Assembly: GCF_026626585.1 (NCBI RefSeq)
Contig: NZ_JAPNKD010000014.1
Span: forward strand, 285,207-349,206
Source: Nannocystis sp. ILAH1
GTDB taxonomy: Bacteria; Myxococcota_A; Polyangia; Nannocystales; Nannocystaceae
Reading direction: 5' to 3'
DNA length: 64,000 bases
Shown here: positions 6,206 through 28,977 of the stretch, piece after piece
Numbering within the stretch: the stretch's first letter is position 1
Layout of the letters: each line of letters starts with the position of its first letter
Notes under the pieces: generated by a model
What the model saw: the letters and a program-made list of their open reading frames with translations, nothing else
Told to the model about the DNA's origin: nothing
Database searches by the model: none
Program-made: the position numbers and the translations under genes

Positions 6206-9456
<3,251 letters not shown>

Positions 9457-9463
9457 GGCTTTA

Positions 9464-10195
9464 TCAGCGCTCCTTGATGTGGGTGCCGTCGAAGGTGTGG
9501 TCGTTGCCGATGGCCTTGTTGATGACGTCGCGGTGGGCGCTGACGTCCCAGCCGAGGCGCGCGAGGCCGGTGAGGATCCGGGTGCGCAGGCGCAGCGAGT
9601 CCTCGGCCGGGTCGCCGAGGCGAGCGATCAGCGGGCCGAGCGAGCGCGGCTCGCCGATGTCGAGCAGCGCCTCGACCGCGAAGAAGCGCACGCCCTCGTC
9701 CGGGTCTTCGAGGTAGCCGGCGAGGATGTCGGGCACGCGCGCGTCGTCGATCTCCTGCAGGTGCGTGAGCAGCTGCAGCTTGGCGCTCGGGTCGCGCTCG
9801 TAGCCCGGCGGGTGGTGGGCCAGCAGCGCGTCCAGGATGTCCCACTCCTGCTGCTTGCTCGCCAGCTCCTCGACCACGCGCAAGACCCAGGCGATGTTGT
9901 CGCTCTGGAGGCAGAACTCCTTGGCCGCCGGCAGCACGGTGTCGAGCGGGAGGCCGAGCAGGCGCTTGTACAGCCAGCCCTTCTCCTCCTCGTCCTCGAT
10001 CGACTTGCTGGCGTTCATCGTGAACCGCTTCATCAGGCCGACGATCGCCGGGATCTCGGCCATCTCCAGCAGCTGCTCCATCGCGTAGTAGCGGTCGGCC
10101 GACTGCGCGTACTGGTTCTGGACGGTCTTGATGTGCTTGTCGAGCTTGCTCTTGCTGCGACCCGCGCTGCTGAAGAGGTCCTTGAGTCCCACGAT
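9464..10195 (-). CDS. HEAT-repeat (PBS-lyase type) protein
   Basis: Repeated HEAT-like units are present ([27 protein letters not shown]...). The start is ambiguous: GTG at 10195 has a GGGGA SD, with alternative ATGs at 10279 and 10339. Confidence 0.6.
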
Positions 10196-15996: not shown

Positions 15997-16413
15997 GCGC
16001 CAAGGCTAAGCCCGCGCGCGGCGAAACGCGAGAGCGCCAGGCGCGGGCGCGCGAGGGCAGGGCGCCGGCTCGGTCCGCTGGCAGGCCGTCGTACGACTCG
16101 GGGGTCGATCGCGGCGCGCCGTCGGTGACCTTCGTCTCGCGTCCGGGCGATCCTCGCCGCGGGCGTCGGTGCTGGTGCTGTCTCGAGAGGAGGACGCGGC
16201 AGCCAGCATGCGGACGTGAGCGAGCGAGGTCTGCGCTCGGTGAGCCGAGCGCCAGGATCTTTACTTCAGTGAGATGAGATGTCCTTGAGGACATGTGCTG
16301 ACCGGGACATCCGCCACGGCGATCGGTGACGCCGGACGCGGGTGGCGAGAAGTGAGCACTTCTTGGCGTTTTCGCCACTTGCCCGGCCGCAGCCGGGAGT
16401 GCGAGCGTGGAGC

Positions 16414-17385
16414 ATGACCTTGCGTCCGCACGTGGTCGCGGTGCTGGCCTTGCCGGGGGTGGTCGCGTTCGACCTGACGATGCCGTGCGAGGTGTTCGGG
16501 CGCGCCGAGGTGCCCGGGGGCGCGCGGCCGTACGAGGTGCGCGTGTGCGGCGAGACCCGGAGCGTCGACGCCGGGGCGTTTCAGCTGGCGCTGCGCTGGG
16601 GGCTGGCCGATCTGGCGCGGGCGCACACCGTGATCGTGCCCGGCGTGATGGAGCCGACGCGGCCGTTCTCGCCGGCGGTGCTCGAAGCGCTGCGGGCAGC
16701 GGCGCGGCGACGGGCGCGGGTCGCATCGATCTGCAGCGGCGCGTTCGTGCTGGCGGAGGCCGGGCTGCTCGACGGCCTGCGGGTGACGACGCACTGGATC
16801 GCCGCCGGCTTACTCGCCCGGCGTTACCCGACGCTCACCGTCGATCCGAACGTGTTGTTCGTCGACAACGGGCGGATCTTGACCTCGGCCGGCGGGGCCG
16901 CCGGGATGGACCTGTGCCTGCACATGCTGCGCAGCGATCACGGGGCCGCGGTGGCCGCTCACGCCTCGCGGCTCGCCGTCGTCCCGCTCGAGCGCAGCGG
17001 CGGCCAGGCGCAGTACATCGTCCACGAGCCGCCGACCTCGACCAGCAGCCTGGCGCCGCTGCTCGACTGGATGAACCGTCACCTGCGCGACGACCTGACG
17101 CTGCCGACGCTGGCGCGCAGGGCCCGGATGAGCACGCGGACGCTGAGCCGGCGGTTCCGCGAGCAGACCGGGACGACCCCGCTGAAGTGGGTGCTCACCG
17201 CCCGGATCGCCCGGGCCCAGCAGCTGCTCGAGGCGACCTCCTTGTCGCTCGAGGAGATCGCCGGCGACGTCGGCTTCGCGGCCGCGTCGACGCTGCGCAA
17301 CCGCTTCGCGCAGGTGATGGGCACGTCGCCGATGACGTACCGCAAGCTGTTCCGCAGCGGGGGCGAAATGCAGGCGCAGCACTGA
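16414..17385 (+). CDS. GlxA-type transcriptional regulator (DJ-1/PfpI domain + AraC HTH)
   Basis: The N-terminal DJ-1/PfpI-like domain (VAVLALPGVVAFDL...ICSGAFVLAEAGLLDG) is followed by AraC-type tandem HTHs (TLPTLARRARMSTRTLSRRF...). Confidence 0.85.
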   Translation: MTLRPHVVAVLALPGVVAFDLTMPCEVFGRAEVPGGARPYEVRVCGETRSVDAGAFQLALRWGLADLARAHTVIVPGVMEPTRPFSPAVLEALRAAARRRARVASICSGAFVLAEAGLLDGLRVTTHWIAAGLLARRYPTLTVDPNVLFVDNGRILTSAGGAAGMDLCLHMLRSDHGAAVAAHASRLAVVPLERSGGQAQYIVHEPPTSTSSLAPLLDWMNRHLRDDLTLPTLARRARMSTRTLSRRFREQTGTTPLKWVLTARIARAQQLLEATSLSLEEIAGDVGFAAASTLRNRFAQVMGTSPMTYRKLFRSGGEMQAQH

Positions 17386-17514: not shown

Positions 17515-18987
17515 TCAGAAGTTCACGTCGAGGTACAGGTTGGTCAGGAAGATGTTCTGCTTGTAGATGCCGTCGGCGCTGGCGGCCTTCGTCGGCGCCT
17601 GGAACTTGTTGAGGACGTTCCGGCCCTTGGTGTCGACCTTGAAGTAGGCGATGTCGGTGAAGGTCAAGCCGAGGTGGAGGCGCTGGTGCAGGCGGAACCG
17701 GCCGCCGAGGGAGAAGGTCATCTTGTTGGAGTCGAGCAGGGCGGGCTCGATGGTCTGGACCGGGACGGCGGTCGAGTCGAAGCCGAGGCCGGCGTACAGC
17801 TCGACGGCCTCGATCACCCAGTAGCTCGCGCCGAAGCGGACGCCGCCGGCCGGCTTCCAGAAGCGCGGGAGGTTCTGGGTGACGGCCTTGACGTTGTCGT
17901 TCGGAGTGTCGCCGCCGTACCCTTCAGGGTTGGTGAGCGCGGTGTCGGCGTTGGCGAAGTCGCACTGGCGGTCGGCCTTGCTGGCGTCGAGGACGCACTG
18001 CTTGTCCATCACCTTCCAGTTGGTGAAGTCGCCGAACAGGCGCAGCTCGAGCTTGGGGACCGGGCGGACGCGGAAGCCGAAGCGGACGATGTCGGGCAGG
18101 CGCTGCTGCAGCTCGATCGGCGTCGCGGGGGACACGGGGGCGTCCGCGAGGGCGTTGCTGAGTTCGCCCTTCAGCGTCATGTTGCCGGTGATGTTGGGCC
18201 GGCTGGTGTACGAGGCGCCGATCCACAGCTTGTCGCGCCAGTTCCAGATCGCGCCGATGCCGAAGCTGCCCTGCCAGCCCGATGCCTTGAGCCAGCTGCG
18301 GCCCTCCTGGAGGTGGCCGTTGGACTGCACGAGGTCGTCGGTGCCGTCGGCGTTGCGGGCCCGGATGGTGTCGACCTCGCTGCGGATGGCGCTGCCGGAC
18401 AGACCGATCGACAGGCCGATCTTGGCGATGTTGAAGGCGACCGCGCCGGTGATGTACATCGAGCGCAACTTGCCGTCGATGGTGTGCCAGCGCTGCACGC
18501 CGTCGACCGCGCCCGGGTAGTCCTGGCTGCCGCGGTACTTCTCGTTGGGCTTCCACGTCGACTGGCCGCCGAACGGGAAGTACACCGCGGCGCCGGCCGA
18601 GAAGAACTTGGTGCCGAAGTCCGAGCTGGCGCCGGCGAACGGGCCGGCGATGAAGTTGGACAGCTTGGCGACGCCGGCGTTGGCGTCGGTGGCCCCCTCG
18701 GGCGTGCCGGTCTCGCTGCTGATGGCCGACTCCGGTCGGTCGTAGCTGACCCAGCGCGCCGCGAAGCTGCCGTCGACGAAGATCCGCGTACCGGGCTTCA
18801 GCGCGATACCCGCGGGGTTGTAGTAGATCGCAGTCGGGTTGTCGGTGGTCACGTGGCCATGCTCGCCGCCGAATCGAGCGGTGCTGAGGCCGGATGCCCG
18901 GGCCTCGTTCGCGCCGACGAGCGCGGCGGTCAACAGGCCACAGGCGAAGAGGGTGCGCGAGCGAGACGCATGACGAGCGAGCGACAT
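17515..18987 (-). CDS. FadL/TodX family outer-membrane beta-barrel transporter
   Basis: It has a signal peptide, alternating beta-strand pattern, an NPAG motif (IYYNPAGIA) and a C-terminal aromatic residue (…LYLDVNF). Confidence 0.8.
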   Translation of the reverse strand: MSLARHASRSRTLFACGLLTAALVGANEARASGLSTARFGGEHGHVTTDNPTAIYYNPAGIALKPGTRIFVDGSFAARWVSYDRPESAISSETGTPEGATDANAGVAKLSNFIAGPFAGASSDFGTKFFSAGAAVYFPFGGQSTWKPNEKYRGSQDYPGAVDGVQRWHTIDGKLRSMYITGAVAFNIAKIGLSIGLSGSAIRSEVDTIRARNADGTDDLVQSNGHLQEGRSWLKASGWQGSFGIGAIWNWRDKLWIGASYTSRPNITGNMTLKGELSNALADAPVSPATPIELQQRLPDIVRFGFRVRPVPKLELRLFGDFTNWKVMDKQCVLDASKADRQCDFANADTALTNPEGYGGDTPNDNVKAVTQNLPRFWKPAGGVRFGASYWVIEAVELYAGLGFDSTAVPVQTIEPALLDSNKMTFSLGGRFRLHQRLHLGLTFTDIAYFKVDTKGRNVLNKFQAPTKAASADGIYKQNIFLTNLYLDVNF

Positions 18988-19056
18988 GAAGGTGACCTCG
19001 TACGGCGACAAACCGGCGCCACTTTACACCGAGGTCACTGCTTTACGGCGGACAAA

Positions 19057-19761
19057 ATGCACGGCAGAGTGATGCGCAGGATGTCCCGATCGTTTTCTGT
19101 CCGCCGCGTGTTCGGCCCTCGGGTCCCCGGCTCGGTGCTCGGTCTGTCGCTGCTGGTGCCGCTCATGGCGGGGTGCCCCGACTCCGAGGCCAAGTTCAAC
19201 GAATTCCTCGACAACACCAAGGACGACCGCGACTTCATGCCGCCGCCGCCCCCGGACGTGATGCCCGCCCAGGCGGACATCAGCGGCGACTTCCTGCTGG
19301 CAGTGTCGACGGTCATCGCCCGCGACCTGCCGCTGCAGTTCATCGCCACCAATACGCTGACCACCGACGAGATGGGCAACACCTTCCTCGCCGCCTGCCT
19401 GCAGCCGCTCAGCCTCACGGCGGGCAAGGTCAACGTGCCGCGCGAGCCGATCGGCGACCCGCTGTGTTACGAAGACATCCCGATCGTCGACGGCAAGTTC
19501 GACATCGACGCCGGCGTGGTGAAGGTGACCGGCATGGCCAACCCGGTGACCGGCGGCGACATCGAGGCGACGCTCAGGATGATCGCCACCATCATCGACG
19601 AGGATTTCTTCTGCGGCGAAATCGAGGGCGATTTGATGAGCCCCCTCATGTCCACCCTGAAGGGCTCGACCTTCGCCGCAGTGCGCCTCGAAGACCCTGC
19701 GATGCTGCCGCTCGACGTGACCAAGTCCTGCAGCGGCGACACGGTCCGCGACAAGGAGTGA
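19057..19761 (+). CDS. Lipoprotein, unknown function
   Basis: It has a lipobox (LLVPLMAGC) and runs divergent from the porin gene. The start is ambiguous (ATG 19057 / 19073 / 19082). Confidence 0.55.
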   Translation: MHGRVMRRMSRSFSVRRVFGPRVPGSVLGLSLLVPLMAGCPDSEAKFNEFLDNTKDDRDFMPPPPPDVMPAQADISGDFLLAVSTVIARDLPLQFIATNTLTTDEMGNTFLAACLQPLSLTAGKVNVPREPIGDPLCYEDIPIVDGKFDIDAGVVKVTGMANPVTGGDIEATLRMIATIIDEDFFCGEIEGDLMSPLMSTLKGSTFAAVRLEDPAMLPLDVTKSCSGDTVRDKE

Positions 19762-19848: not shown

Positions 19849-21171
19849 ATGACGACGACGGTCTCGCCCCCCACGCCCGCAGGGCAGTGGTCCAAGGTCC
19901 GCAACGAGCTGCAACAGCTCTGGCACACCGAGCTGCGCGACTCGAACATCCGCGCGGCGTACGTGGTGTGCGCGATGACCGGGACGGCCTACGGGATGGT
20001 GACCGCGGTCGTGGCCGTCTACCTGAACAAGGTCCGCGGCATCGATACGCAGACGATCGGCGTGTTGGCGATGTTCTTCGCCGCGGGTATCGCCCTCTTC
20101 TCGGTGCCGATGGGCAAGGCGATCCAGCGCTTCGCGCCGCGGATGATCTTGTCGCTCGGGCTCCTCGGATACGCGACGGCCACCGCGATCTTCCCGTTCC
20201 TCGCCACACTGCTCGGGCTGGGAGCGGCGCGCGGGTTCGACGGCGCTTTTTCGGTCGGCGTGTGGGTGAGCCTCGAGACCGTGTTGCTGATGCGCACGAC
20301 GACCGCGCATCGCGGGCTCATCACCAGCCTCTACACGATCTCGATGTCGACCGGCTACGCCCTCGGTGCGGTGATCGGGTGGATCGTGATGCTGATCTAT
20401 CCGATGCCGATGGTGTTCGTGGCAGCGGGGCTGTTCGCCTCGCTGGCGGCGCTGATCGCCTACGTGTTCCTGGACCGCGACATCCAGCCGATCACCGGTA
20501 GTGGTCATGGACACGAGCACGCGGACGAAGCCCCGAGACCCGAGGCCGCCATCGAACGTCATCCGCCGATCCTGAAGCTGTACTGGCGGATCAAGACGGC
20601 CTGCATCCCGACGTTCTGTTACGGCTACTTCCAGGCGTCGATGGTGCTGTTCCTTCCTCTGTTCTTGATCAACTCTCGCGGGGTCAAGGAAGAAGATACC
20701 GTCTTCTTGGTGGCGTTCTTCTCGATCGGCATGGCCGCCAGCGTGGTGTTCGTCGGCCGTCTCGGCGATCGCTACGGCCACCTCAAGACGGTGCGCTCGC
20801 TGGTGGGGCTCGGGGTGGTGTTGACGGCGTCGCTGGTCTACCTGCCGACGCTCTGGCTGGTCGCGGTCGCGGTGCTGCTCGCGGGCGCCTCGCTGGCGCC
20901 GATCTGGCCGATGAGCCTGGCGCTGCAGAGCCTCATCGTCGACCCGCGCGACTTCAGCCGCAGCAACGCGCTGCTGAACGGCTCGTACGGGCTCGGCACG
21001 CTCGCGGGGCCGCTGGTGTCGGGCTTTTTGTTCAAGCACTACGGCGGCGAGACGATGTTCCTCCACATCGCGGTGCTGTGGGCGCTGGCGCTCCTGGCCA
21101 CGCTGGCGTTCCGCCGCGACGATCCGAGCTTCCGCGCGATCGCCCACGCCCGCGCGCGCGCGGCGGTGTGA
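19849..21171 (+). CDS. MFS transporter
   Basis: The product has 12 predicted TM helices and an MFS-type loop motif. Length is 440 aa. Confidence 0.85.
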   Translation: MTTTVSPPTPAGQWSKVRNELQQLWHTELRDSNIRAAYVVCAMTGTAYGMVTAVVAVYLNKVRGIDTQTIGVLAMFFAAGIALFSVPMGKAIQRFAPRMILSLGLLGYATATAIFPFLATLLGLGAARGFDGAFSVGVWVSLETVLLMRTTTAHRGLITSLYTISMSTGYALGAVIGWIVMLIYPMPMVFVAAGLFASLAALIAYVFLDRDIQPITGSGHGHEHADEAPRPEAAIERHPPILKLYWRIKTACIPTFCYGYFQASMVLFLPLFLINSRGVKEEDTVFLVAFFSIGMAASVVFVGRLGDRYGHLKTVRSLVGLGVVLTASLVYLPTLWLVAVAVLLAGASLAPIWPMSLALQSLIVDPRDFSRSNALLNGSYGLGTLAGPLVSGFLFKHYGGETMFLHIAVLWALALLATLAFRRDDPSFRAIAHARARAAV

Positions 21172-21187
21172 GGCTATCCTCGCGGGC

Positions 21188-22234
21188 ATGGGCCTGCTCC
21201 ACCGTCTGTATGCTCGCGCCGCGCCCGAGGTCTGGGAGACCGAGACGCGGCTGCTGCACGCGCTCCGACTGGTCCGCCGGCCGCTCGCGGTGCAGTGGAT
21301 CGCCACTGCGATGTGCGACCTCCGCTGTCCGCACTGCTACTCCGGCGCGGGCAAGCGGGCCGAGGGCGAGCTGACGACGCAGGAGGCGATCCGTCTGGTG
21401 GTCGACGAGCTGGTGGCGCTCGGCCGGCCGACCTTCGTGATCGCGGGCGGGGAGCTGTTGCTGCGCCGCGACATCGCCGAGATCGTAGCGCACGCGCGGG
21501 CGCAGGGGCTCGAGTGGGCGATGCACACGCACGGGGGACATGTCCCCAAGTTCAGGTCGCTGTTCGAACGCCACCCGCCGACTCTGGCGGCGATCAGCCT
21601 CGACGGCGAGCAGCGGCAGCACGACCTGTTCCGCGGGCGCCAGGGCAGCCACGCGGCGGCGCTGGCTGCTATCCGCACGCTCAAGGAGTGCGGCTGTCCG
21701 GAGGTGGTGGCGGGGACGACCGTGACGCGCGAGAACGCCGACCGCCTGGCCGACCTGTTCCCGATCGTCGCAGCCTCGGGGGCCGATTCGTGGGGCCTCC
21801 ATCTCTTCGCTCCGGAGGGCCGCGGCGCCGAGCACACCGCGCTGTGTCCGACGCCGGAGCAGCTGCGCCGCGTGGCCGCGTTCGCCCGCCGCAAGCGCGG
21901 GCTGTTCCACGTCGAGCTGTGCAACGAGTGGGGCAGCGCCGGCGCCGACGATCGCTTCTACCGCGACCAGCCGTTCCTGTGCGGGGCCGGCCGGATCTCC
22001 TGCGTCGTCGGGGCGACCGGCGAGGTGCTTCCGTGCACCACCACCGACCTGCGCGAGTCGGAGGGCAACGTGCGCGACCGGCCGCTGCGTGACATCTGGA
22101 CCCGCGGCTTCACGCGCTTCCGCAGCGCCGGCCACCGCGAGTGCTCGGACGGCCACGAGTGCTGGCTGCAGGCCCGCAACGGCAACCCGTGCCGCGAGCA
22201 GGCGTTCGGCGCCTGCCGCAAGGAGGCGGTGTGA
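21188..22234 (+). CDS. Radical SAM protein with C-terminal SPASM domain
   Basis: It has the CDLRCPHCY (Cx3Cx2C) motif and a C-terminal Cys cluster (CGAGRISCVV...CTTTD...CSDGHECW...C...C). It lies 16 nt downstream of the MFS gene. Confidence 0.85.
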   Translation: MGLLHRLYARAAPEVWETETRLLHALRLVRRPLAVQWIATAMCDLRCPHCYSGAGKRAEGELTTQEAIRLVVDELVALGRPTFVIAGGELLLRRDIAEIVAHARAQGLEWAMHTHGGHVPKFRSLFERHPPTLAAISLDGEQRQHDLFRGRQGSHAAALAAIRTLKECGCPEVVAGTTVTRENADRLADLFPIVAASGADSWGLHLFAPEGRGAEHTALCPTPEQLRRVAAFARRKRGLFHVELCNEWGSAGADDRFYRDQPFLCGAGRISCVVGATGEVLPCTTTDLRESEGNVRDRPLRDIWTRGFTRFRSAGHRECSDGHECWLQARNGNPCREQAFGACRKEAV

Positions 22235-23547
22235 GGCGCTGGTGGCTCGACCTGGGCTCGTTCGCGGTGGCGCTCGCGCTGGCCGCGGCGGTGGTGCTCC
22301 GCTGGCGTCGGGGTCACGTGGCGCTGCTGTCGAGCACGGCGGCGCCGGCGATCCGGCTGCTCGCGCTGCTGATCGTGTTCGTGCAGGGCTGCGCCGACCG
22401 GCTGCGCGGGCGCGAGGAGCCGGACGGGCAGGGGGCTGTGCCGGGCTCTCAGGACATGTCGGTTGGGGCAGGTCCATCGCAGCAGGTCGAAGAGGACATG
22501 TCCCAAGGGGCAAATGCTCCGGAGAGCTCGGGGACGACGCCGACGCTCGGGCCCGACGCATTCCCGCTGGCCGACGAGGCGGCGCTGGGCAGGTGGGCGC
22601 GGCTCGTCGCGGACGACGGGTTCGCCGTCGGGCCGGGCAAGCGGTTCGCGCTGGCGCTGGTGCCGGTGCCGGAGGCGACGCCGGCCCAGGACCCGCGGTG
22701 GCTGCAGGTCGCGTCCGCCCTCGAGGCGCTGGCCGACGCGGCCGGCGGCGCCGAGGGTGAGGCGTTTCGCAGCCGCTGGCGGGCGCACGTGGAGGCGCGC
22801 AAGGCAGGCGGCAGCGAGACGATCGCGGAGCTGCAGGCGCTGCTGAGCAGCATGGAGGCGCTGCCGCTCTACCACGCGGGGCTGGCGGGCTACGTGTGGC
22901 GCCGGGCGGCGCCGCTGCCGGTGAGCGCATCGGAGCGGGCGGAGCTTTTCGGGCGGATCGAGCGGCACCTGCGGGCCTGCGAGGCGCTGCTGAAGGGCCA
23001 GTTCGAGACGGGGCCGATCGAGTTCACTGCGTGGCGCAGCAAGGCAGCCCCGCCGGTCGGCTACTCGGGCTTGAAGGTGCCGAAGGGGCTGCTGGCGGCG
23101 GCGAAGGGGCACTATCCGCAGATCGACGCGGGGACGTGGACGGTCGAGGCGACGCTGTCTCTGACCGTGGTCGACGCGGGCGTGACGCTGCTGCGCGCGG
23201 GCCGGGCGTCGGAGCTGCAGGCGGGGCAGCGGTTTACTCTGGGCCGGCTGGACGTGCTGGCGAGCGGGCGACCGGCGAAGCTGCGCCACGATGAACTCGG
23301 GGACATGTCCCTCGGAGCAGGCGCGGTGGTGACTGCGTGGGACGTCGGCCAGCGGCTCGCGAGGCCCGGGAGCGAGCGGGTGCGGGCGAAGGTGGCAGCG
23401 GCCCAGAGCGACGATTCGAAGGCGCTCGAGCAGCTGCAGTCGATCCTGCCGGCGGCGCACCTCGAGATCCGCCGCGCGCTGGCCGAGAAGCCACAGGCAC
23501 CCGGCTCGCCGGGGCTGCGCACGCTGCTCGAGCTGTTCGACCAGTGA
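22231..23547 (+). CDS. Membrane-anchored protein of unknown function, translationally coupled to the radical SAM gene
   Basis: The GTG start overlaps the rSAM stop (GTGA) and has a perfect AAGGAGG SD. It has an N-terminal TM (WWLDLGSFAVALALAAAVVL). It contains in-frame GGACATGTCC elements. Confidence 0.6.
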   Translation: MRRWWLDLGSFAVALALAAAVVLRWRRGHVALLSSTAAPAIRLLALLIVFVQGCADRLRGREEPDGQGAVPGSQDMSVGAGPSQQVEEDMSQGANAPESSGTTPTLGPDAFPLADEAALGRWARLVADDGFAVGPGKRFALALVPVPEATPAQDPRWLQVASALEALADAAGGAEGEAFRSRWRAHVEARKAGGSETIAELQALLSSMEALPLYHAGLAGYVWRRAAPLPVSASERAELFGRIERHLRACEALLKGQFETGPIEFTAWRSKAAPPVGYSGLKVPKGLLAAAKGHYPQIDAGTWTVEATLSLTVVDAGVTLLRAGRASELQAGQRFTLGRLDVLASGRPAKLRHDELGDMSLGAGAVVTAWDVGQRLARPGSERVRAKVAAAQSDDSKALEQLQSILPAAHLEIRRALAEKPQAPGSPGLRTLLELFDQ

Positions 23548-23782: not shown

Positions 23783-24979
23783 TCAGCCGGCGTCGACGAC
23801 CACGCGGATCTCGGCGGCGGCTGCTTCGGCGCGGGCGCGGCACTCGGCGACGTCGTCGCCGTAGGCCAGGACGACGCCCATGCGCCGGTACTTGCGGGTG
23901 TCGGGCTTGCTGAACAGGCGGATCTTGGTGCGCGGGTCGGCGAGCGCCTTGCCGACGCCGGTAAAGCGCGGGTTGGTGCCTGGCCGATCGGCCAGGACCA
24001 CGGCGGAGGCCCCGGGCGCGCGGAGGATGACCTGGCCGATCGGGAGGCCGAGGATCGCGCGCACGTGCAGCTCGAACTCGCTCTGATCCTGCGTGATCAT
24101 GGTGACCATGCCGGTGTCGTGCGGGCGCGGGCTGACCTCGCTGAAGATGACGTCGTCGCCGACGACGAACAGCTCGACGCCGAACAGGCCGGCGCCGCCG
24201 AGCGCCTCGGTGACTGCGGCGGCGATCTCCTGCGCGCGGGCGAGGGCCTGCGGCGCCATCGCGTGCGGCTGCCACGACTCCATGTAGTCGCCGCGCTCCT
24301 GCCGGTGGCCGATCGGCGGGCAGAACAGGGTGCCCTCGTGGCGCGTGCGGATCGTGAGCAGCGTGATCTCGTAGTCGAACGGGACGAAGCCCTCGACGAT
24401 GACGCGGGCCGAGCGGCCGCGGGCGCCCGACAGCGCGTACTCCCACGCGACGGCGACGTCGGCGGCGGTGCGCACGGTGCTCTGACCCTTGCCCGAGCTC
24501 GACATGACGGGCTTGATCACGCACGGCAGGCCGAGGCGCTGGACCGCGGCCTCGACCTCCTCGCGCGTGTCGGCGAAGGCGTACGGGCTGGTCGGCAGGC
24601 CGAGCTGCTCGGCGGCGAGGCGGCGGATGCCCTCGCGGTCCATGGTGAGCCGGGTGGCCCGCGCGGTCGGGATGACTGCCCAGCCCTCGCTCTCGAGCTC
24701 GACCAGCGCGTCGGTGGCGATGGCCTCGATCTCGGGGACGATGTAGTGGGGCTTCTCGCGGGCGACGACGGCGCGCACCGCGTCGCGGTCCTGCATGTCG
24801 AACACGTGGCTGCGGTGCGCGACCTGCATCGCCGGAGCGTTGGCGTAGCGGTCGCACGCGATGACCTCGACGCCGAGGCGCATGGCTTCGATCGCAACCT
24901 CGCGGCCGAGTTCGCCCGAGCCGAGCAGGAGCAGCCGTGTGGACGAGGGAGACAGAGGAGTGCCGAGCGTGAGATCCAT
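23783..24979 (-). CDS. purT: Formate-dependent phosphoribosylglycinamide formyltransferase (GAR transformylase 2)
   Basis: It matches the E. coli PurT pattern across its length ([15 protein letters not shown]..., [23 protein letters not shown]). A GTG at 25048 is an alternative start. Confidence 0.9.
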
Positions 24980-25290
24980 GGCGAGCGCGCGCAGGATAGT
25001 GGCGCACTGTCGCGCGCGGCAAGGCGGGCGCCGCGGGCGCGAGGTCACACGCGTCGGCCAGGGCCTCGCGCGGGCCGATGCGCGGCGGTGCGGGGCTCAC
25101 GCCGGTCGGGCTGCGGAGCTCACGCCGGTCGGGCTGCGGAGCTCACGCTGGTCGGTCGCGGCCGGCGGACGGGCCGGTGCGAGCGAGCCGAGCTGCGGGG
25201 TTCATCGTCGGCGAGCGCCGCGGTGAGGAGAGCCCGCGGAGGCGCGATGCGGCGGAGGCAGACGAGTCGCGCGGTCGATGCGGCCGCGCG

Positions 25291-28200
25291 TCAGGTGGGC
25301 GCGCTGCCGTTGTACATCGCGCTCCACTGCGCGGGGCGGAGGATGGCCCGCGAGGCGAGGTACTGGTCGGCCTGGGCGATCAACGTGGCGCCGCTGGGAC
25401 CCAGCAGCTCGCCGCGGCGGCGACGGGCGCAGGCGGCGTGGACCGGCATGTCGGCGGTGTCGAAGCTGGCGGCGGCGGCCTCGAGGCGGACGAGCGCCTG
25501 CTGGATGTCGCCGTTCTGTGCGGCGATGCCGGCCCGGATCAGCGCGGCCATGGCGACGGAGTCGTGGCGCAGCGCGCGGTCCTCCTCGAGCTGCGCGGCG
25601 TCGCGTTCGGCGGCGGCGAGCAGGACGCCGGCGTTGTGCGGCTGCTCGCGCGCGGCCGCGACGGCGGCGAGGCCCCGCGCGTGGAGGAAGAGGATCCGCT
25701 GGCCCTGCCAGCCGAAGATGTACGAGTTCTCGACGGCGACCCAGTTCTCGGCCAGACGCTGCCAGGCCGAGCCACCTTGCCCTTGGTACAGGTCGCACGA
25801 GGTCTCGAGGAGCAGCGCGAGCATGTGCTGGAAGTGGAAGCCCTCCTTCGACCAGCGGCGCATCGCCCCGCGCACGCGGTCGCGGGCGCTGGTGATGTCG
25901 TCGGCGCCGAGCAGAGCGTAGGCGCTGTAGAGGGCCGACCAGACCTCGCCGCACAGATCGCCGGCGTCTTCCGACTCGCGCAGCCAGGCGTGGGCGCGGT
26001 GGCCGAGCTCGGCCAGCTCGCCGAGCATGAACAGGCCGCGCATCGTGCTCATGCGGGCGAGGTCGAGCTCCCAGCCGACGCCGACGCAGCGGTCGAGCAG
26101 GATCTGGGCGCCCTGCTCGCAGTGCTCGAGCGCGCGGCGCCAGCGGCCGAGCGAGACGGCGGCGATGGCGTCGACGATCTCGCACAGGCCGATGAGGCGC
26201 GGCTCCGAGATCTGTTCGGCGAGGCGGCGCGCCTCCTTGAGCAGGGTGGTGCCGCGGCTGACGGCGTTGGCGGTGCCGCGGCTCATGATCATGGCGCCGA
26301 CGCCGGCGAGCGCGCGGGCGATGCGCTGCGGCTCACCTGTCTGAAGGGCCAGGAGGAGGCCGCGCTGGTAGAAGCTGTAGCCGCGGATCGGATCGACGAA
26401 GGCGAGGCCGACGGCCGCCGACAGGCACACGTCGAGGCGCAGCAGATCGGCCGGCGGGACCTGCTCCTCGCGCACCGCGGCGAAGCCGAGCCCGCGCAAG
26501 CTGAGCTGCGTGGAGCGGGTGATGATCGACATGTTGGCGCGGCCCGGCGTGGCCGGGTAGCCGAGGTCGACCTCGACCAGCGCGGGGCGCAGCATCCGCA
26601 CGCCCTGGTCGATGTTGCCGCTGACGAGGAACTGCTCGCCGGCGCGGCGGCGCAGCTCGAGTGATTCGGCCGGCGAGGCGCCCTCGGCGGCGCTGGCGTA
26701 GACCGGGGCCGCCTCGGCGCTGCGACCGGCCAGCGCGAGCGCGTCGGCGCGACGGCGGAGGAGGGCGCGGCGCTCGTCGTCCGGGAGGTCGGGCGCCCAC
26801 GCGAGGGCGCGGCCGTACAGCTGGGCGGCGCGGTAGAACGCGAGCGCGGCGGCGGCCCGCTCGGCGGCGGCGACGGCGGCGGCGTGCGCCTCCTTCAAGG
26901 CGCCGGCGGCGTGGAGGTGGTGCGCCAGCAGCTCGGGGTCGTCGGCCGACTGCGCGAGCGCGTCGGCGAGGGTGCGGTGCAGCTGCGCCTGGCGCTCGCC
27001 GCCGAGCTGCGCCAGCACGGTGTCGCGGATCCGGTCGTGATAGCATTCGACGGTGTCGCCGCTGCGCGAGGCCAGAGTGCGCAGCAGGTGCTGCGCCTGC
27101 AGCTCGCCGAGGACCGAGCGATCGGTGACGCCCGAGGCCGTGAACGCGAGGCTCGGCGGGATCGGCCGCCCGGCGATGGCGACGATCTCGAGCAGGCTGC
27201 GACCCGCGGCGCGCAGGCCGGCGAGGCGAGTGCGCACGACCGCGTCGAGCGAGACCTCGGCCGGCGCGGCGCCGCGGTGACCGGCGATGTGGCGCGCGAG
27301 CTCCTCGACGAACAGCGGGTTGCCGCCCGACTCGGCGGCGATCCGGCGCGCCTCGGCGCGGGCGCTGTCGCTGTCACGGCCGAGCCGGGCCAGCGCGAGC
27401 TCCTCGGCCTGATCGGGCGAGAGCGGCTCGACCAGCAGGTCGCGCACCAGAGCCTTGAGCTCGGGCCGCGCGCCGAGCCGCCGCAGCTCGCGGAGCATCG
27501 GCGCGTCGTCCTCGTCGATGCGGTACGAGCCGATGAAGAGCATCGCCGGCGGATCGGGCGGCGACAGCAGCTCGGCGAGCAGGCGCGCGCTGTCCTCGTC
27601 GCCCCACTGGAGATCGGCGATCCGCAGCACCAGCGGGCGGCGATCGGCGATCCGCGCCAGCAGCTCCTTGAGCCCGCGGAAGGCCCGACGCCGCGCCTCT
27701 TGCGGGTCGGGGGCGACGAAGTTGCGCTGCGGCAGATCGGCGACCACGGGGGCGCGCGCGAGGACGGGGAACAGCCGCGTGAGCTCGTGGATCTCGCGCG
27801 GCAGCAGGGCCGCGGCCTCCTCCTGCGGGAGGTGGCGGAGGTGCTGCGCGAGCGCGTCGAGGACGCTGTCGAAGGCCTTGTACGGCACGCTCTCGCGCTC
27901 GTAGCAGCGGCCCTGGAGGACGAAGGCGCGGTCGTTGCGGCGCAGCTCGGCGATGAAGCGATCGATGAGCGCGGTCTTGCCGATGCCGGAGCGGCCGCGG
28001 ACGTACACGCACACCGGCGAGCCGGCGAGCGCGAGCTGGAAGGCGTCGCGCATCGCCGACAGCAGGTCGTCGCGGCCGACGAAGCGCGCGCCCGACTCGG
28101 TGGGGCCGAGCGGGGCCTCGCCGAGGGCCTCGCGGATGTCGGCGCCGCCGAGCCGCGCGGCCGGGTCGCGCTGCAGCAGGCCCACGCACAGGGTCGCCAG

Positions 28201-28977
28201 CTCCGGATCGACGTCGGGCACGAGCGCCTGCGGCGGGGCCGGATCTTCGTGCTGCTTGGCGTGGAGGATGGCGAGCGGCGGGCCGGTGAACGGCAGGCGG
28301 CCGGTGAGCGCCTCGTACAGCATGACGCCGATCGCGTACCAGTCGCTCGCGGGCGAGGCCGGGTTGCCGGCGGCCTGCTCCGGCGCCATCGTCGCCGGCG
28401 TGCCGAGCAGGCCGTCCTCGCCGCCCTCGGCGACGTCGTCGGCGGCGAGGCCGAAGTCGAGGATGACGACGCGACCGTCGGCGGTCACCAGCACGTTCGA
28501 CGACTTGAGGTCGCGGTGCAGCTTGCCGGCGGCGTGCAGGGCGCTGACGCCGGCGGCCAGCTGCAGCAGGGCGGGGCGCAGGCGCTCCGGCGGCGGCGCA
28601 GCGCCTGGCTTTTCGGACATGCCCTGACGGACATGGTCGACGAAGCTGACGCCGTCGACGAACTCCATGGTGATGAACCACTCGTCGTCGTGCGAGACGA
28701 GCTGGTGGAGGCTGACGAGGTTGGGGTGCGACAGGCCGGCGGCGCTGCGGAACTCGTTCTTGAGGCGGAACAGCGCGCCCGGGTCGAGCTGGTGCAGGGT
28801 CTTGACCGCGATGGTGCGGCCGCTGTCGCGATCGAGCGCGGCGTAGACGACGCCCATGCTGCCGGAGCCGACCCGACGCACCAGCTCGTAGCGGCCGAGC
28901 GGACGCGGAAGGATGTCCTCAGGGACAGGTGGCGTCACCGGCAGCGAGGCGCGGGCCTGGGGCTCGTCGGGATTCAA
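25291..28977 (-). CDS. STAND-type Ser/Thr protein kinase (kinase + AAA/NTPase + helical repeats), 1228 aa
   Basis: It has Hanks kinase motifs (VGSGSMGVVY, HRDLKSSNVL, DFGLA), then a P-loop (GRSGIGKTAL), then a long Ala/Leu-rich TPR-like region. Confidence 0.85.
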   Translation of the reverse strand: MNPDEPQARASLPVTPPVPEDILPRPLGRYELVRRVGSGSMGVVYAALDRDSGRTIAVKTLHQLDPGALFRLKNEFRSAAGLSHPNLVSLHQLVSHDDEWFITMEFVDGVSFVDHVRQGMSEKPGAAPPPERLRPALLQLAAGVSALHAAGKLHRDLKSSNVLVTADGRVVILDFGLAADDVAEGGEDGLLGTPATMAPEQAAGNPASPASDWYAIGVMLYEALTGRLPFTGPPLAILHAKQHEDPAPPQALVPDVDPELATLCVGLLQRDPAARLGGADIREALGEAPLGPTESGARFVGRDDLLSAMRDAFQLALAGSPVCVYVRGRSGIGKTALIDRFIAELRRNDRAFVLQGRCYERESVPYKAFDSVLDALAQHLRHLPQEEAAALLPREIHELTRLFPVLARAPVVADLPQRNFVAPDPQEARRRAFRGLKELLARIADRRPLVLRIADLQWGDEDSARLLAELLSPPDPPAMLFIGSYRIDEDDAPMLRELRRLGARPELKALVRDLLVEPLSPDQAEELALARLGRDSDSARAEARRIAAESGGNPLFVEELARHIAGHRGAAPAEVSLDAVVRTRLAGLRAAGRSLLEIVAIAGRPIPPSLAFTASGVTDRSVLGELQAQHLLRTLASRSGDTVECYHDRIRDTVLAQLGGERQAQLHRTLADALAQSADDPELLAHHLHAAGALKEAHAAAVAAAERAAAALAFYRAAQLYGRALAWAPDLPDDERRALLRRRADALALAGRSAEAAPVYASAAEGASPAESLELRRRAGEQFLVSGNIDQGVRMLRPALVEVDLGYPATPGRANMSIITRSTQLSLRGLGFAAVREEQVPPADLLRLDVCLSAAVGLAFVDPIRGYSFYQRGLLLALQTGEPQRIARALAGVGAMIMSRGTANAVSRGTTLLKEARRLAEQISEPRLIGLCEIVDAIAAVSLGRWRRALEHCEQGAQILLDRCVGVGWELDLARMSTMRGLFMLGELAELGHRAHAWLRESEDAGDLCGEVWSALYSAYALLGADDITSARDRVRGAMRRWSKEGFHFQHMLALLLETSCDLYQGQGGSAWQRLAENWVAVENSYIFGWQGQRILFLHARGLAAVAAAREQPHNAGVLLAAAERDAAQLEEDRALRHDSVAMAALIRAGIAAQNGDIQQALVRLEAAAASFDTADMPVHAACARRRRGELLGPSGATLIAQADQYLASRAILRPAQWSAMYNGSAPT

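Follow-up and report, generated by a model that had tools for sequence, protein, structure and literature searches.

An uncharacterised radical SAM enzyme family defined by an obligate protein partner in Myxococcota and Planctomycetota

Within a 64,000-nucleotide stretch of the genome of Nannocystis sp. ILAH1 (contig NZ_JAPNKD010000014.1, forward strand, positions 285,207 to 349,206; hereafter the window, with positions counted from its first letter), a gene for a 348-amino-acid (aa) radical S-adenosylmethionine (SAM) enzyme runs directly into a gene for a 438-aa protein, which we call the partner. We find that the enzyme and the partner are a conserved, self-contained two-gene unit, and that the enzyme belongs to a radical SAM family, so far uncharacterised, whose defining feature is an obligate protein partner that has no fold match. 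The family has one clear functional counterpart, seen so far in Myxococcota and Planctomycetota only, and gene linkage is our guide to what that counterpart may do. Full-text searching of the literature turned up no paper on the enzyme-partner family. To our knowledge, SPASM/Twitch enzymes have mostly been assigned to peptides or small molecules and very few act on whole proteins. As a two-gene system, the pair is directly testable for enzymologists.

Results

The enzyme and partner genes are coupled in the window and paired across two phyla

The pair occupies these positions in the window:

21188-22234, + strand: radical SAM enzyme of 348 aa whose C-terminal domain is a reduced, Twitch-like SPASM domain
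21314-21337, + strand: CX3CX2C motif (C43, C47, C50), site of the SAM-binding [4Fe-4S] cluster; cysteines present in 120/120 homologues
21980-22192, + strand: auxiliary-cluster cysteines C265, C272, C283, C325 and C335, from an alignment of 120 homologues
22220-22226, + strand: AAGGAGG, the Shine-Dalgarno sequence of the partner gene, lying within the 3' end of the radical SAM gene; read directly from the sequence
22231-23547, + strand: partner protein, 438 aa

The GTG start of the partner gene (22231-22233) overlaps the TGA stop of the enzyme gene (22232-22234) in a 4-nt GTGA overlap. Upstream, a gene for a major facilitator superfamily (MFS) transporter ends in a TGA that lies 16 nt before the ATG of the enzyme gene, both on the + strand. 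These junctions, the Shine-Dalgarno sequence and the length of the partner are all as given in the preliminary description of the locus, which was made from the window's letters. The whole window has a GC content of 71%, and real genes were told from many shadow open reading frames (ORFs) by a filter on GC at the third codon position; the MFS, radical SAM and 438-aa frames have values of 0.89-0.90, as expected of real genes in a 71% GC genome. The enzyme is 100% identical to the NCBI entry "radical SAM protein [Nannocystis sp. ILAH1]" and the partner is 100% identical to "hypothetical protein OV203_35225" (Nannocystis sp. ILAH1), with the start in the window being the one used in the identical NCBI protein (P0121).

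We examined the gene order in seven annotated contigs and in 12 genome-scan loci with upstream sequence; one contig occurs in both sets, leaving 18 distinct contigs. The genome scan took one genome per species, and the partner was present in 13 scanned genomes, which come from three other Nannocystis species, from Nannocystaceae, Nannocystales, Polyangia and Myxococcales metagenome-assembled genomes (MAGs), and from Gemmataceae, Pirellulales and another Planctomycetota MAG. The pair can be defined as an enzyme of this clade (at least about 57% identity) with a protein carrying the W-x-[SK]-K motif domain directly 3' of it or fused to it, and both the window and the other genomes fit that definition. 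The enzyme lay directly upstream of the partner, or was fused to it in frame, in 12/12 scan loci with upstream sequence. In all seven annotated contigs, which come from distant organisms, the enzyme is followed by a protein of 340-440 aa without a Pfam match, usually with a 4-nt overlap, and these downstream proteins are homologous to the 438-aa protein of the window at 31-35% identity; the other neighbors in the seven contigs differ completely. Taken together, a partner homologue sits directly 3' of the enzyme, or is fused to it, in 18/18 distinct contigs from Myxococcota and Planctomycetota. The enzyme had earlier been labeled an orphan, which is misleading because its gene is one half of an obligate pair.

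Enzyme and partner are repeatedly fused into one protein

An exhaustive profile search gathered the partner family into 204 clusters at 50% identity, 124 of them full-length, and 10 of these 124 are enzyme-partner fusions of 687-817 aa. Two of the loci, L012 (5501-7759) and L018 (5366-7771), have both genes in one reading frame. In a neighbor-joining tree of the enzyme domain the fusions fall in at least three clades, and fusion or fission has therefore happened repeatedly. In the fused proteins the enzyme takes the place of the partner's first hydrophobic helix and is followed by an Arg-rich loop, a hydrophobic signal-like segment, a linker and the C-terminal domain; the Arg-rich loop is kept directly after the enzyme domain in all fusions. 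They also retain internal AXA-like or lipobox sites (ATVQPSARA|GD, SARA|GD, VVHA|GD and LVFLQGC, e.g. in P0154, P0171 and P0256), and the presence of such sites after a 350-aa Fe-S domain suggests that the fusions may be cleaved on export. An AlphaFold2 model of the natural fusion P0154 has good domains and a predicted template modeling score (pTM) of 0.57, so the two domains are not confidently docked. Repeated fusion is the strongest comparative evidence suggesting that both proteins work together physically, and it makes the link between enzyme and partner about as strong as comparative genomics allows.

No other gene accompanies the pair

ORF clustering over 11 loci revealed no other conserved neighbor: only the pair, shadow ORFs and, in a few loci, kinases or sigma factors recurred. 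The MFS gene adjoins the enzyme only in the Nannocystis genomes (L006-L008) and is absent from the other nine scan loci with upstream sequence and from the seven annotated contigs. Genes for a lipoprotein and a FadL porin likewise accompany the pair only within Nannocystis, and because all three are neighbors in Nannocystis only, we rejected them as parts of the system. The annotated contigs have no sulfatase, pqq, mft, nir or ahb genes conserved near the pair, and none of them has mftA/B or pqqA/D as neighbors. The preliminary description had reported no short precursor ORF in the flanks of the window, and a stronger form of that statement holds: when the small ORFs (18-120 aa) lying up to 1.5 kb from the pair were compared all against all, none was conserved among 10 divergent loci. 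Without composition filters this comparison returned low-complexity noise only, and with the filters it returned no match.

Sigma factors were considered as well. An extracytoplasmic function (ECF)-type sigma gene (Sigma70_r2 and r4_2) lies upstream of the enzyme on the same strand in two related Polyangia/Myxococcales genomes, at these positions:

L003, 7032-7664: ECF-type sigma gene, about 340 nt upstream
L004, 917-1549: ECF-type sigma gene, about 340 nt upstream
L015, 696-1328: ECF-type sigma gene, about 1.1 kb upstream

It was rejected as part of the unit because it is present in two related genomes only, and it was not seen in the other contexts.

The enzyme is a SPASM/Twitch-type protein outside the named families

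The enzyme scores 62.6 bits with Pfam Radical_SAM (PF04055; gathering score 29.5), which places it in the superfamily, and 32.0 bits with Pfam SPASM (PF13186; cut-off 21.5) over residues 265-320, a match that is weak or absent in some of its homologues. Six cysteines are 100% conserved among 120 homologues: C43, C47 and C50 of the CX3CX2C motif, which had been predicted and was found, and C265, C283 and C325 in the C-terminal part. C272 is conserved in 91% and C335 in 90% of them. An extra cysteine occurs at position 319 or 322 in 93/120 homologues, and the lineage of the window additionally has C318 and C343. The SPASM cysteine cluster ascribed to the enzyme at the outset stood in part. The first half of the SPASM signature, CX9-15GX4C, is present as C265-X12-G278-X4-C283 (CX12GX4C), whereas the second half, CX2CX5CX3C, occurs neither in the window enzyme nor across the 120 homologues, and the full seven-cysteine definition fails. 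With CX12GX4C present and CX2CX5CX3C absent, the domain is of a reduced, Twitch-like kind, and its set of cysteines would suffice for one auxiliary cluster and perhaps for part of a second. As a separate observation, C272 and C335 have been lost in some fusion lineages.

A total of 51 NCBIfam models matched the enzyme, of which 25 were listed, and no cut-off was reached. Scores were as follows:

AhbD heme b synthase (TIGR04545): 127.3 bits, cut-off 500; the best NCBIfam score
TIGR04053: 120 bits, cut-off 395
NirJ2: 117.6 bits, cut-off 500
TIGR04133: 114.5 bits, cut-off 425; full-length alignment, residues 34-325
MftC: 109.3 bits, cut-off 265
NirJ1: 98.7 bits, cut-off 650
NirJ: 97.1 bits, cut-off 515
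PqqE: 86 bits, cut-off 381
SkfB model: 67 bits, cut-off 300
WgkB model: 48 bits, cut-off 650

No anSME model is among the 25 matches listed of the 51, and the anSME sequence in the PDB matches the core only (E about 1e-6). PADLOC gave no family-level match for the enzyme, with generic core similarity to pVip only (41 bits, E 3e-11). Sorting the enzyme into SPASM subfamilies, as had been suggested, thus returned no housekeeping family, and assignment to a known family through NCBIfam, Pfam or PADLOC was rejected with no family above its cut-off. Among solved structures the nearest relatives by sequence and fold are SkfB, CteB, BlsE, SuiB, DesII, PqqE and anSME. SkfB leads both rankings, by sequence with E 1e-26 over the core and by fold with a Foldseek E of 5e-13 at 23% identity. 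The enzyme sits in the SPASM/Twitch neighborhood, outside its named families. Homologues 57-73% identical to it occur in Myxococcota and Planctomycetota genomes and metagenomes, and metagenomes and MAGs hold many with 61-73% identity.

About 35 residues precede the radical SAM core, and we found no Pfam match in the enzyme to a RiPP recognition element (RRE) or PqqD-type domain, where RiPP denotes a peptide that is made by the ribosome and modified after translation. This N-terminus (residues 1-35, 21188-21290) reads MG[LI]LHR... and then ...ETRLLH..., and it is conserved across phyla, with M1, G2 and R6 invariant in 15 sequences. It is modeled as two short helices ahead of the core and is too short for an RRE.

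The partner has a predicted membrane anchor, an Arg-rich loop and a C-terminal domain without a fold match

Searches of Pfam, NCBIfam, PADLOC and PDB sequences gave no match for the partner, and its confident AlphaFold2 model is without a structural match. Partner homologues are about 30-38% identical, as compared with 57-73% for enzyme homologues. The typical member begins with MK and a strongly hydrophobic helix, followed by an Arg-rich loop, a shorter hydrophobic segment, an acidic Pro-rich linker and the C-terminal domain. In the window these parts are:

22252-22299, + strand: hydrophobic helix 1, predicted membrane anchor, residues 8-23, from a hydrophobicity scan
22300-22356, + strand: Arg-rich loop, predicted cytoplasmic, residues 24-42; family consensus WRLWRGRxVVLRGRWSPRxVR
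22357-22392, + strand: second hydrophobic segment, signal-peptide-like or membrane-spanning, ending in a lipobox-like VQGC (C54)
22393-22560, + strand: low-complexity acidic linker rich in Pro, Gly and Gln, residues 55-110
22561-23544, + strand: C-terminal domain of ~330 aa, residues 111-438, predicted as a helical bundle, a beta domain and then C-terminal helices
23032-23043, + strand: W268-R-S-K271, candidate modification or ligand-binding site, core of [AP]-W-x-[SK]-K-[AS]-[AG]-P

The majority of unfused family members begin with MK and then a strongly hydrophobic 19-mer. In a set of 44 divergent members, at least 90% keep R27 in the loop. The loop of the window lineage reads RWRRGHVALLSSTAAPAIR and has no Trp in its second half, where only P39 and R42 are invariant among Nannocystis relatives. 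At the end of the second hydrophobic segment, other lineages have a canonical lipobox in the same place (LLVAAGC or LVFLASC, e.g. MGRYTTRFVHMVSMLLVAAGC) or AXA-like sites (VHA|GD, ARA|GD). These sites, together with the positive-inside rule, predict a cytoplasmic Arg-rich loop and a periplasmic C-terminal domain held on a flexible linker. The linker has a predicted local distance difference test score (pLDDT) below 50 for residues 60-104 and varies in length and sequence among homologues.

It is in the C-terminal domain that the partner has its most conserved positions. All 44 divergent members share R248 and W268, and W223, K271, W303, R322 and R339-L340-D341 are conserved in at least 90% of them. 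The Ser position of the W-x-S-K motif varies, being S, K or N. In the model, the motif and the loop that comes after it have pLDDT values below those of the rest of the fold (82 for residues 261-270 and 64 for residues 271-280), one of the two places within the domain where the score dips. A conserved Cys, a sulfatase domain and a C/S-x-P-x-R motif are all absent from the partner. One homologue of 617 aa (P0247) continues after the conserved LFDD end into C-terminal ankyrin repeats (Pfam Ank, E about 1e-17), the sole extra domain seen in the partner family.

Discussion

What the enzyme may do to, or with, its partner

We tentatively favor a reading, to which we give somewhat less than an even chance, in which the two proteins are a self-contained enzyme-substrate pair and the partner is modified before export. 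The enzyme would be cytoplasmic and carry its SAM-binding [4Fe-4S] cluster along with a single auxiliary cluster of the kind seen in Twitch or reduced-SPASM domains. The partner would be inserted in the inner membrane by way of helix 1, the cytoplasmic Arg-rich loop and the second hydrophobic, signal-peptide-like segment, so that its ~330-aa C-terminal domain would face the periplasm on the flexible linker. We hypothesize that the enzyme modifies the partner by means of a 5'-deoxyadenosyl radical while it is still in the cytoplasm, either ahead of the C-terminal domain's export or as that export proceeds, and that the Arg-rich loop serves as the docking site, a role that the covalent link would take over in the fusions. 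The best candidate target would be the exposed loop with the invariant Trp268 and the near-invariant Lys271. Because the partner lacks a conserved Cys, a thioether is unlikely, and the more plausible products are a C-C crosslink, an oxidation or an epimerisation.

Several observations speak for a dedicated maturase. These are the adjacency or fusion in all 18 distinct contigs, the fusions in at least three enzyme clades, the lack of any other conserved neighbor or small ORF, the presence of the peptide or protein modifiers SkfB, CteB, SuiB, PqqE and anSME among the closest relatives, and the coupling of the two genes in the window through the GTGA overlap and a strong ribosome-binding site. 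The predictions are consistent with it as well, as W268 and K271 would lie at the start of a lower-scoring loop in an otherwise confident model, and a putative lipobox or AXA-like site follows the second hydrophobic segment in several lineages, fusions included. The preliminary description had suggested that the downstream protein might itself be the substrate. The part of that suggestion that stands is a conserved counterpart, seen in 18 contigs and 10 fusion clusters; its role as substrate, and not as anchor, acceptor or regulator, is what we infer.

Other points weigh against the maturase. The substrate assignment comes from gene linkage alone, and gene fusions unite interacting subunits more often than they unite an enzyme with its substrate. 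Should helix 1 drive co-translational insertion of a partner whose C-terminal domain is periplasmic, the cytoplasmic enzyme would have only a brief opportunity to reach residue 268. The fusion model shows no confident docking of the two domains, and among the models with top scores in NCBIfam, all far under their cut-offs, are those of AhbD and NirJ2, which modify tetrapyrroles. The enzyme is also far more conserved than the partner. Variation at the motif Ser disfavors a formylglycine-type reaction, and because K or N replaces the Ser in several members we rejected Ser-to-formylglycine conversion as a universal mechanism.

The main alternative, possible though rather doubtful, is that the enzyme acts on a small molecule, a lipid or a cofactor precursor at the cytoplasmic face of the membrane, with the partner as a membrane anchor, as a periplasmic acceptor or binding protein for the product, or as a periplasmic sensor that governs the enzyme through the Arg-rich loop. 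The last option matches PknB-type kinases and anti-sigma factors, which have a cytoplasmic domain, a membrane segment and an outside domain. The order of parts in the fusions, from enzyme through loop, hydrophobic segment and linker to C-terminal domain, is that of transmembrane coupling proteins, and the general tendency of fusions to join subunits argues in the same direction, as does the AlphaFold2 model with its two undocked domains. AhbD and NirJ2 as best-scoring families, the small-molecule enzymes BlsE and DesII among the fold neighbors, and a reduced SPASM domain with room for no more than one complete auxiliary cluster, like that of BtrN and other Twitch enzymes that work on small molecules, would all suit such chemistry, and the conserved residues W223, R248, W268, K271, W303, R322 and R339-L340-D341 resemble a ligand-binding site. 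However, the scores of all small-molecule radical SAM families are far below their cut-offs, and a peptide maturase, SkfB, tops both the sequence and the fold matches. Moreover, no transporter, further biosynthetic gene or regulator is conserved with the pair, and therefore a metabolite pathway or a signaling output would have to be encoded elsewhere.

The substrate could also be a different part of the partner, namely the Arg-rich loop, a juxtamembrane segment of ~20 aa, in place of the C-terminal domain, although we think this unlikely. The loop would be accessible in the cytoplasm, which removes the problem of reaching an exported domain, its sequence is conserved (R27 in at least 90%) and it is kept in all fusions, and radical SAM enzymes that crosslink Trp with Arg or Lys (WprB, WgkB and StrB) are known (PMC11851443). 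Against this, the window loop RWRRGHVALLSSTAAPAIR lacks the Trp of the second half, and with P39 and R42 alone invariant there within Nannocystis relatives, no universal candidate residue pair is left. A Trp-Arg crosslink in the cytoplasmic loop is inapplicable to the window lineage, which has no such Trp. Arg-rich flanks are to be expected beside membrane segments for topology alone, and it is the C-terminal domain that has the most conserved positions of the family.

Two further explanations seem to us far less probable. The preliminary description had called transporter adjacency typical of RiPP or cofactor-maturation loci; in a RiPP-type locus, the enzyme would mature a distal small peptide and the MFS protein would export the product. 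SPASM/Twitch enzymes often do mature peptides, and the enzyme gene has the MFS gene 16 nt upstream of it in the same orientation. The comparison does not support that framing, as the MFS gene is a neighbor within Nannocystis only, the enzyme lacks an RRE or PqqD domain, and no small ORF is conserved near any of the 10 divergent loci; a distal peptide would also fail to account for why the enzyme is so strictly paired with, and at times fused to, the 438-aa family, so we regard a peptide locus as very improbable. The adjacent transporter is incidental, and the locus is not to be counted as a RiPP cluster. It is harder still to believe that the enzyme is a divergent member of a housekeeping family with a known distal substrate, such as the AhbD/NirJ heme enzymes, anSME, PqqE or MftC. 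Weak full-length similarity to AhbD (127 bits), NirJ2 (118), MftC (109) and PqqE (86) could be read that way, and anSME and PqqE are among the fold neighbors, but the scores are 2.4- to 4.4-fold under the curated cut-offs, the second half of SPASM, present in those families, is missing here, and the vicinity of the pair lacks conserved sulfatase, pqq, mft, nir or ahb genes.

Comparison with known enzyme-protein pairs

The logic of the pair, judged by analogy, appears most like that of anSME with its sulfatase or of QhpD with QhpC, and it is a member of neither group. AtsB and anSME are, as we predict for the window enzyme, cytoplasmic SPASM-group radical SAM enzymes without an RRE, and they act before export on a full-length protein with an export signal, as we propose for the pair. 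In Klebsiella the sulfatase maturase gene lies directly upstream of the substrate gene. As noted above, anSME is also among the fold neighbors of the window enzyme. The differences are that sequence similarity is restricted to the core, that anSME has two auxiliary clusters from a full seven-cysteine SPASM domain whereas the window family lacks CX2CX5CX3C, and that the partner is not a sulfatase, has no C/S-x-P-x-R motif and does not keep the Ser of W-x-S-K invariant. QhpD is a SPASM enzyme that crosslinks the co-encoded QhpC subunit in the cytoplasm, and QhpC works in the periplasm with a Trp-derived cofactor. The likeness would be a specific co-encoded protein as the counterpart. Unlike the partner, QhpC is small and Cys-rich with Cys thioether crosslinks, and its operon includes a dedicated exporter and protease, neither of which is found with the window pair.

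SkfB, the best solved relative, shares a reduced C-terminal auxiliary-cluster domain in place of a full SPASM domain. It differs in having an N-terminal RRE and in forming a Cys-to-Met thioether in a small precursor peptide; the window system lacks both an RRE and a peptide, and its partner has no conserved Cys. An enzyme defined by a protein neighbor, and not by a peptide, is also found in TIGR04133, which we take to be the uncharacterised radical SAM/SPASM protein of an "rSAM/lipoprotein" pair in Bacteroidota, defined by an adjoining lipoprotein. Its model aligns over residues 34-325, although the score is far below the cut-off (114.5 bits vs 425), the partner matches no NCBIfam model and the phyla differ. 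The anti-phage defense protein pVip can be set aside, as PADLOC gave no family-level match for the enzyme and no match at all for the partner. Finally, StrB/SuiB, WgkB, WprB and DarE (darobactin) act on short motifs with Trp and Lys or Arg, and the partner has an invariant Trp and a near-invariant Lys three positions apart, with SuiB among the fold neighbors of the enzyme. These maturases, however, have RREs and small precursor peptides (PMC11851443). We take the resemblance of the motif to those of Lys-Trp and Arg-Trp crosslinkers as a possible lead, not as evidence.

Returning to the dedicated maturase, we speculate on a more specific form of it, which we consider a long shot: a crosslink or protein-derived cofactor would be made at Trp268 and Lys271 in a full-length, folded, exported protein of new fold before its export, and in the fusions the 350-aa enzyme would act as a giant "leader" that is severed at the internal signal-peptide or lipobox site. 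If the Trp268/Lys271 reading is true, the enzyme would be a maturase with a stoichiometric, self-contained protein substrate, and the product would possibly be a new Trp/Lys-derived periplasmic cofactor. More generally, a modified partner would mean that the pair adds a new chemistry of protein maturation, along with the uncommon arrangement of an enzyme placed upstream of an internal export signal in one protein. An unmodified partner would leave a radical SAM enzyme that is tethered to the membrane and coupled to a domain in the periplasm, likewise out of the ordinary.

Surrounding genes and variation among strains

The genes that flank the pair in the window are:

16342-17385, + strand: AraC/DJ-1 regulator
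17515-19011, - strand: FadL/TodX-type outer-membrane protein
19057-19761, + strand: 234-aa lipoprotein, signal peptide ending LLVPLMAGC with lipobox LMAGC
19849-21171, + strand: MFS transporter (Pfam MFS_1, 165.8 bits)
23783-25048, - strand: PurT
25291-28977, - strand: Ser/Thr kinase with an AAA_16 domain

Rfam and promoter/terminator scans over 18-25 kb returned nothing above background. The lipoprotein gene upstream of the MFS gene had been missed, leaving the earlier gene list of the flanks incomplete, because a spurious 695-aa ORF (17674-19761) conceals it at its 3' end, where 19057-19761 is the real part. It sits between the divergently transcribed FadL/TodX gene (- strand) and the MFS gene. 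The lipoprotein has four Cys in its mature part and no match in Pfam, NCBIfam or PADLOC. The FadL/TodX protein, the lipoprotein and the MFS transporter may form a set for uptake of a hydrophobic compound.

In one metagenomic contig (L020) a gene for porphobilinogen deaminase (HemC; 8486-9556) lies directly 3' of the partner on the same strand, a case we remark on because the best sub-threshold NCBIfam scores of the enzyme are to heme-modifying enzymes. In Nannocystis pusilla Na p29 (L008) the radical SAM gene has a 2-bp deletion at about 6457 relative to the window and two other Nannocystis genomes, and the partner gene changes frame too (about 7753-7801); the pair is either a pseudogene in that strain or affected by long-read assembly indels. 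Some partner annotations of N. pusilla (P0123, P0131) are truncated as well. In Nannocystis punicea (L006), the upstream MFS homologue is split in two frames (residues 1-322 and 323-428) at about 5585, which is a frameshift or an assembly error.

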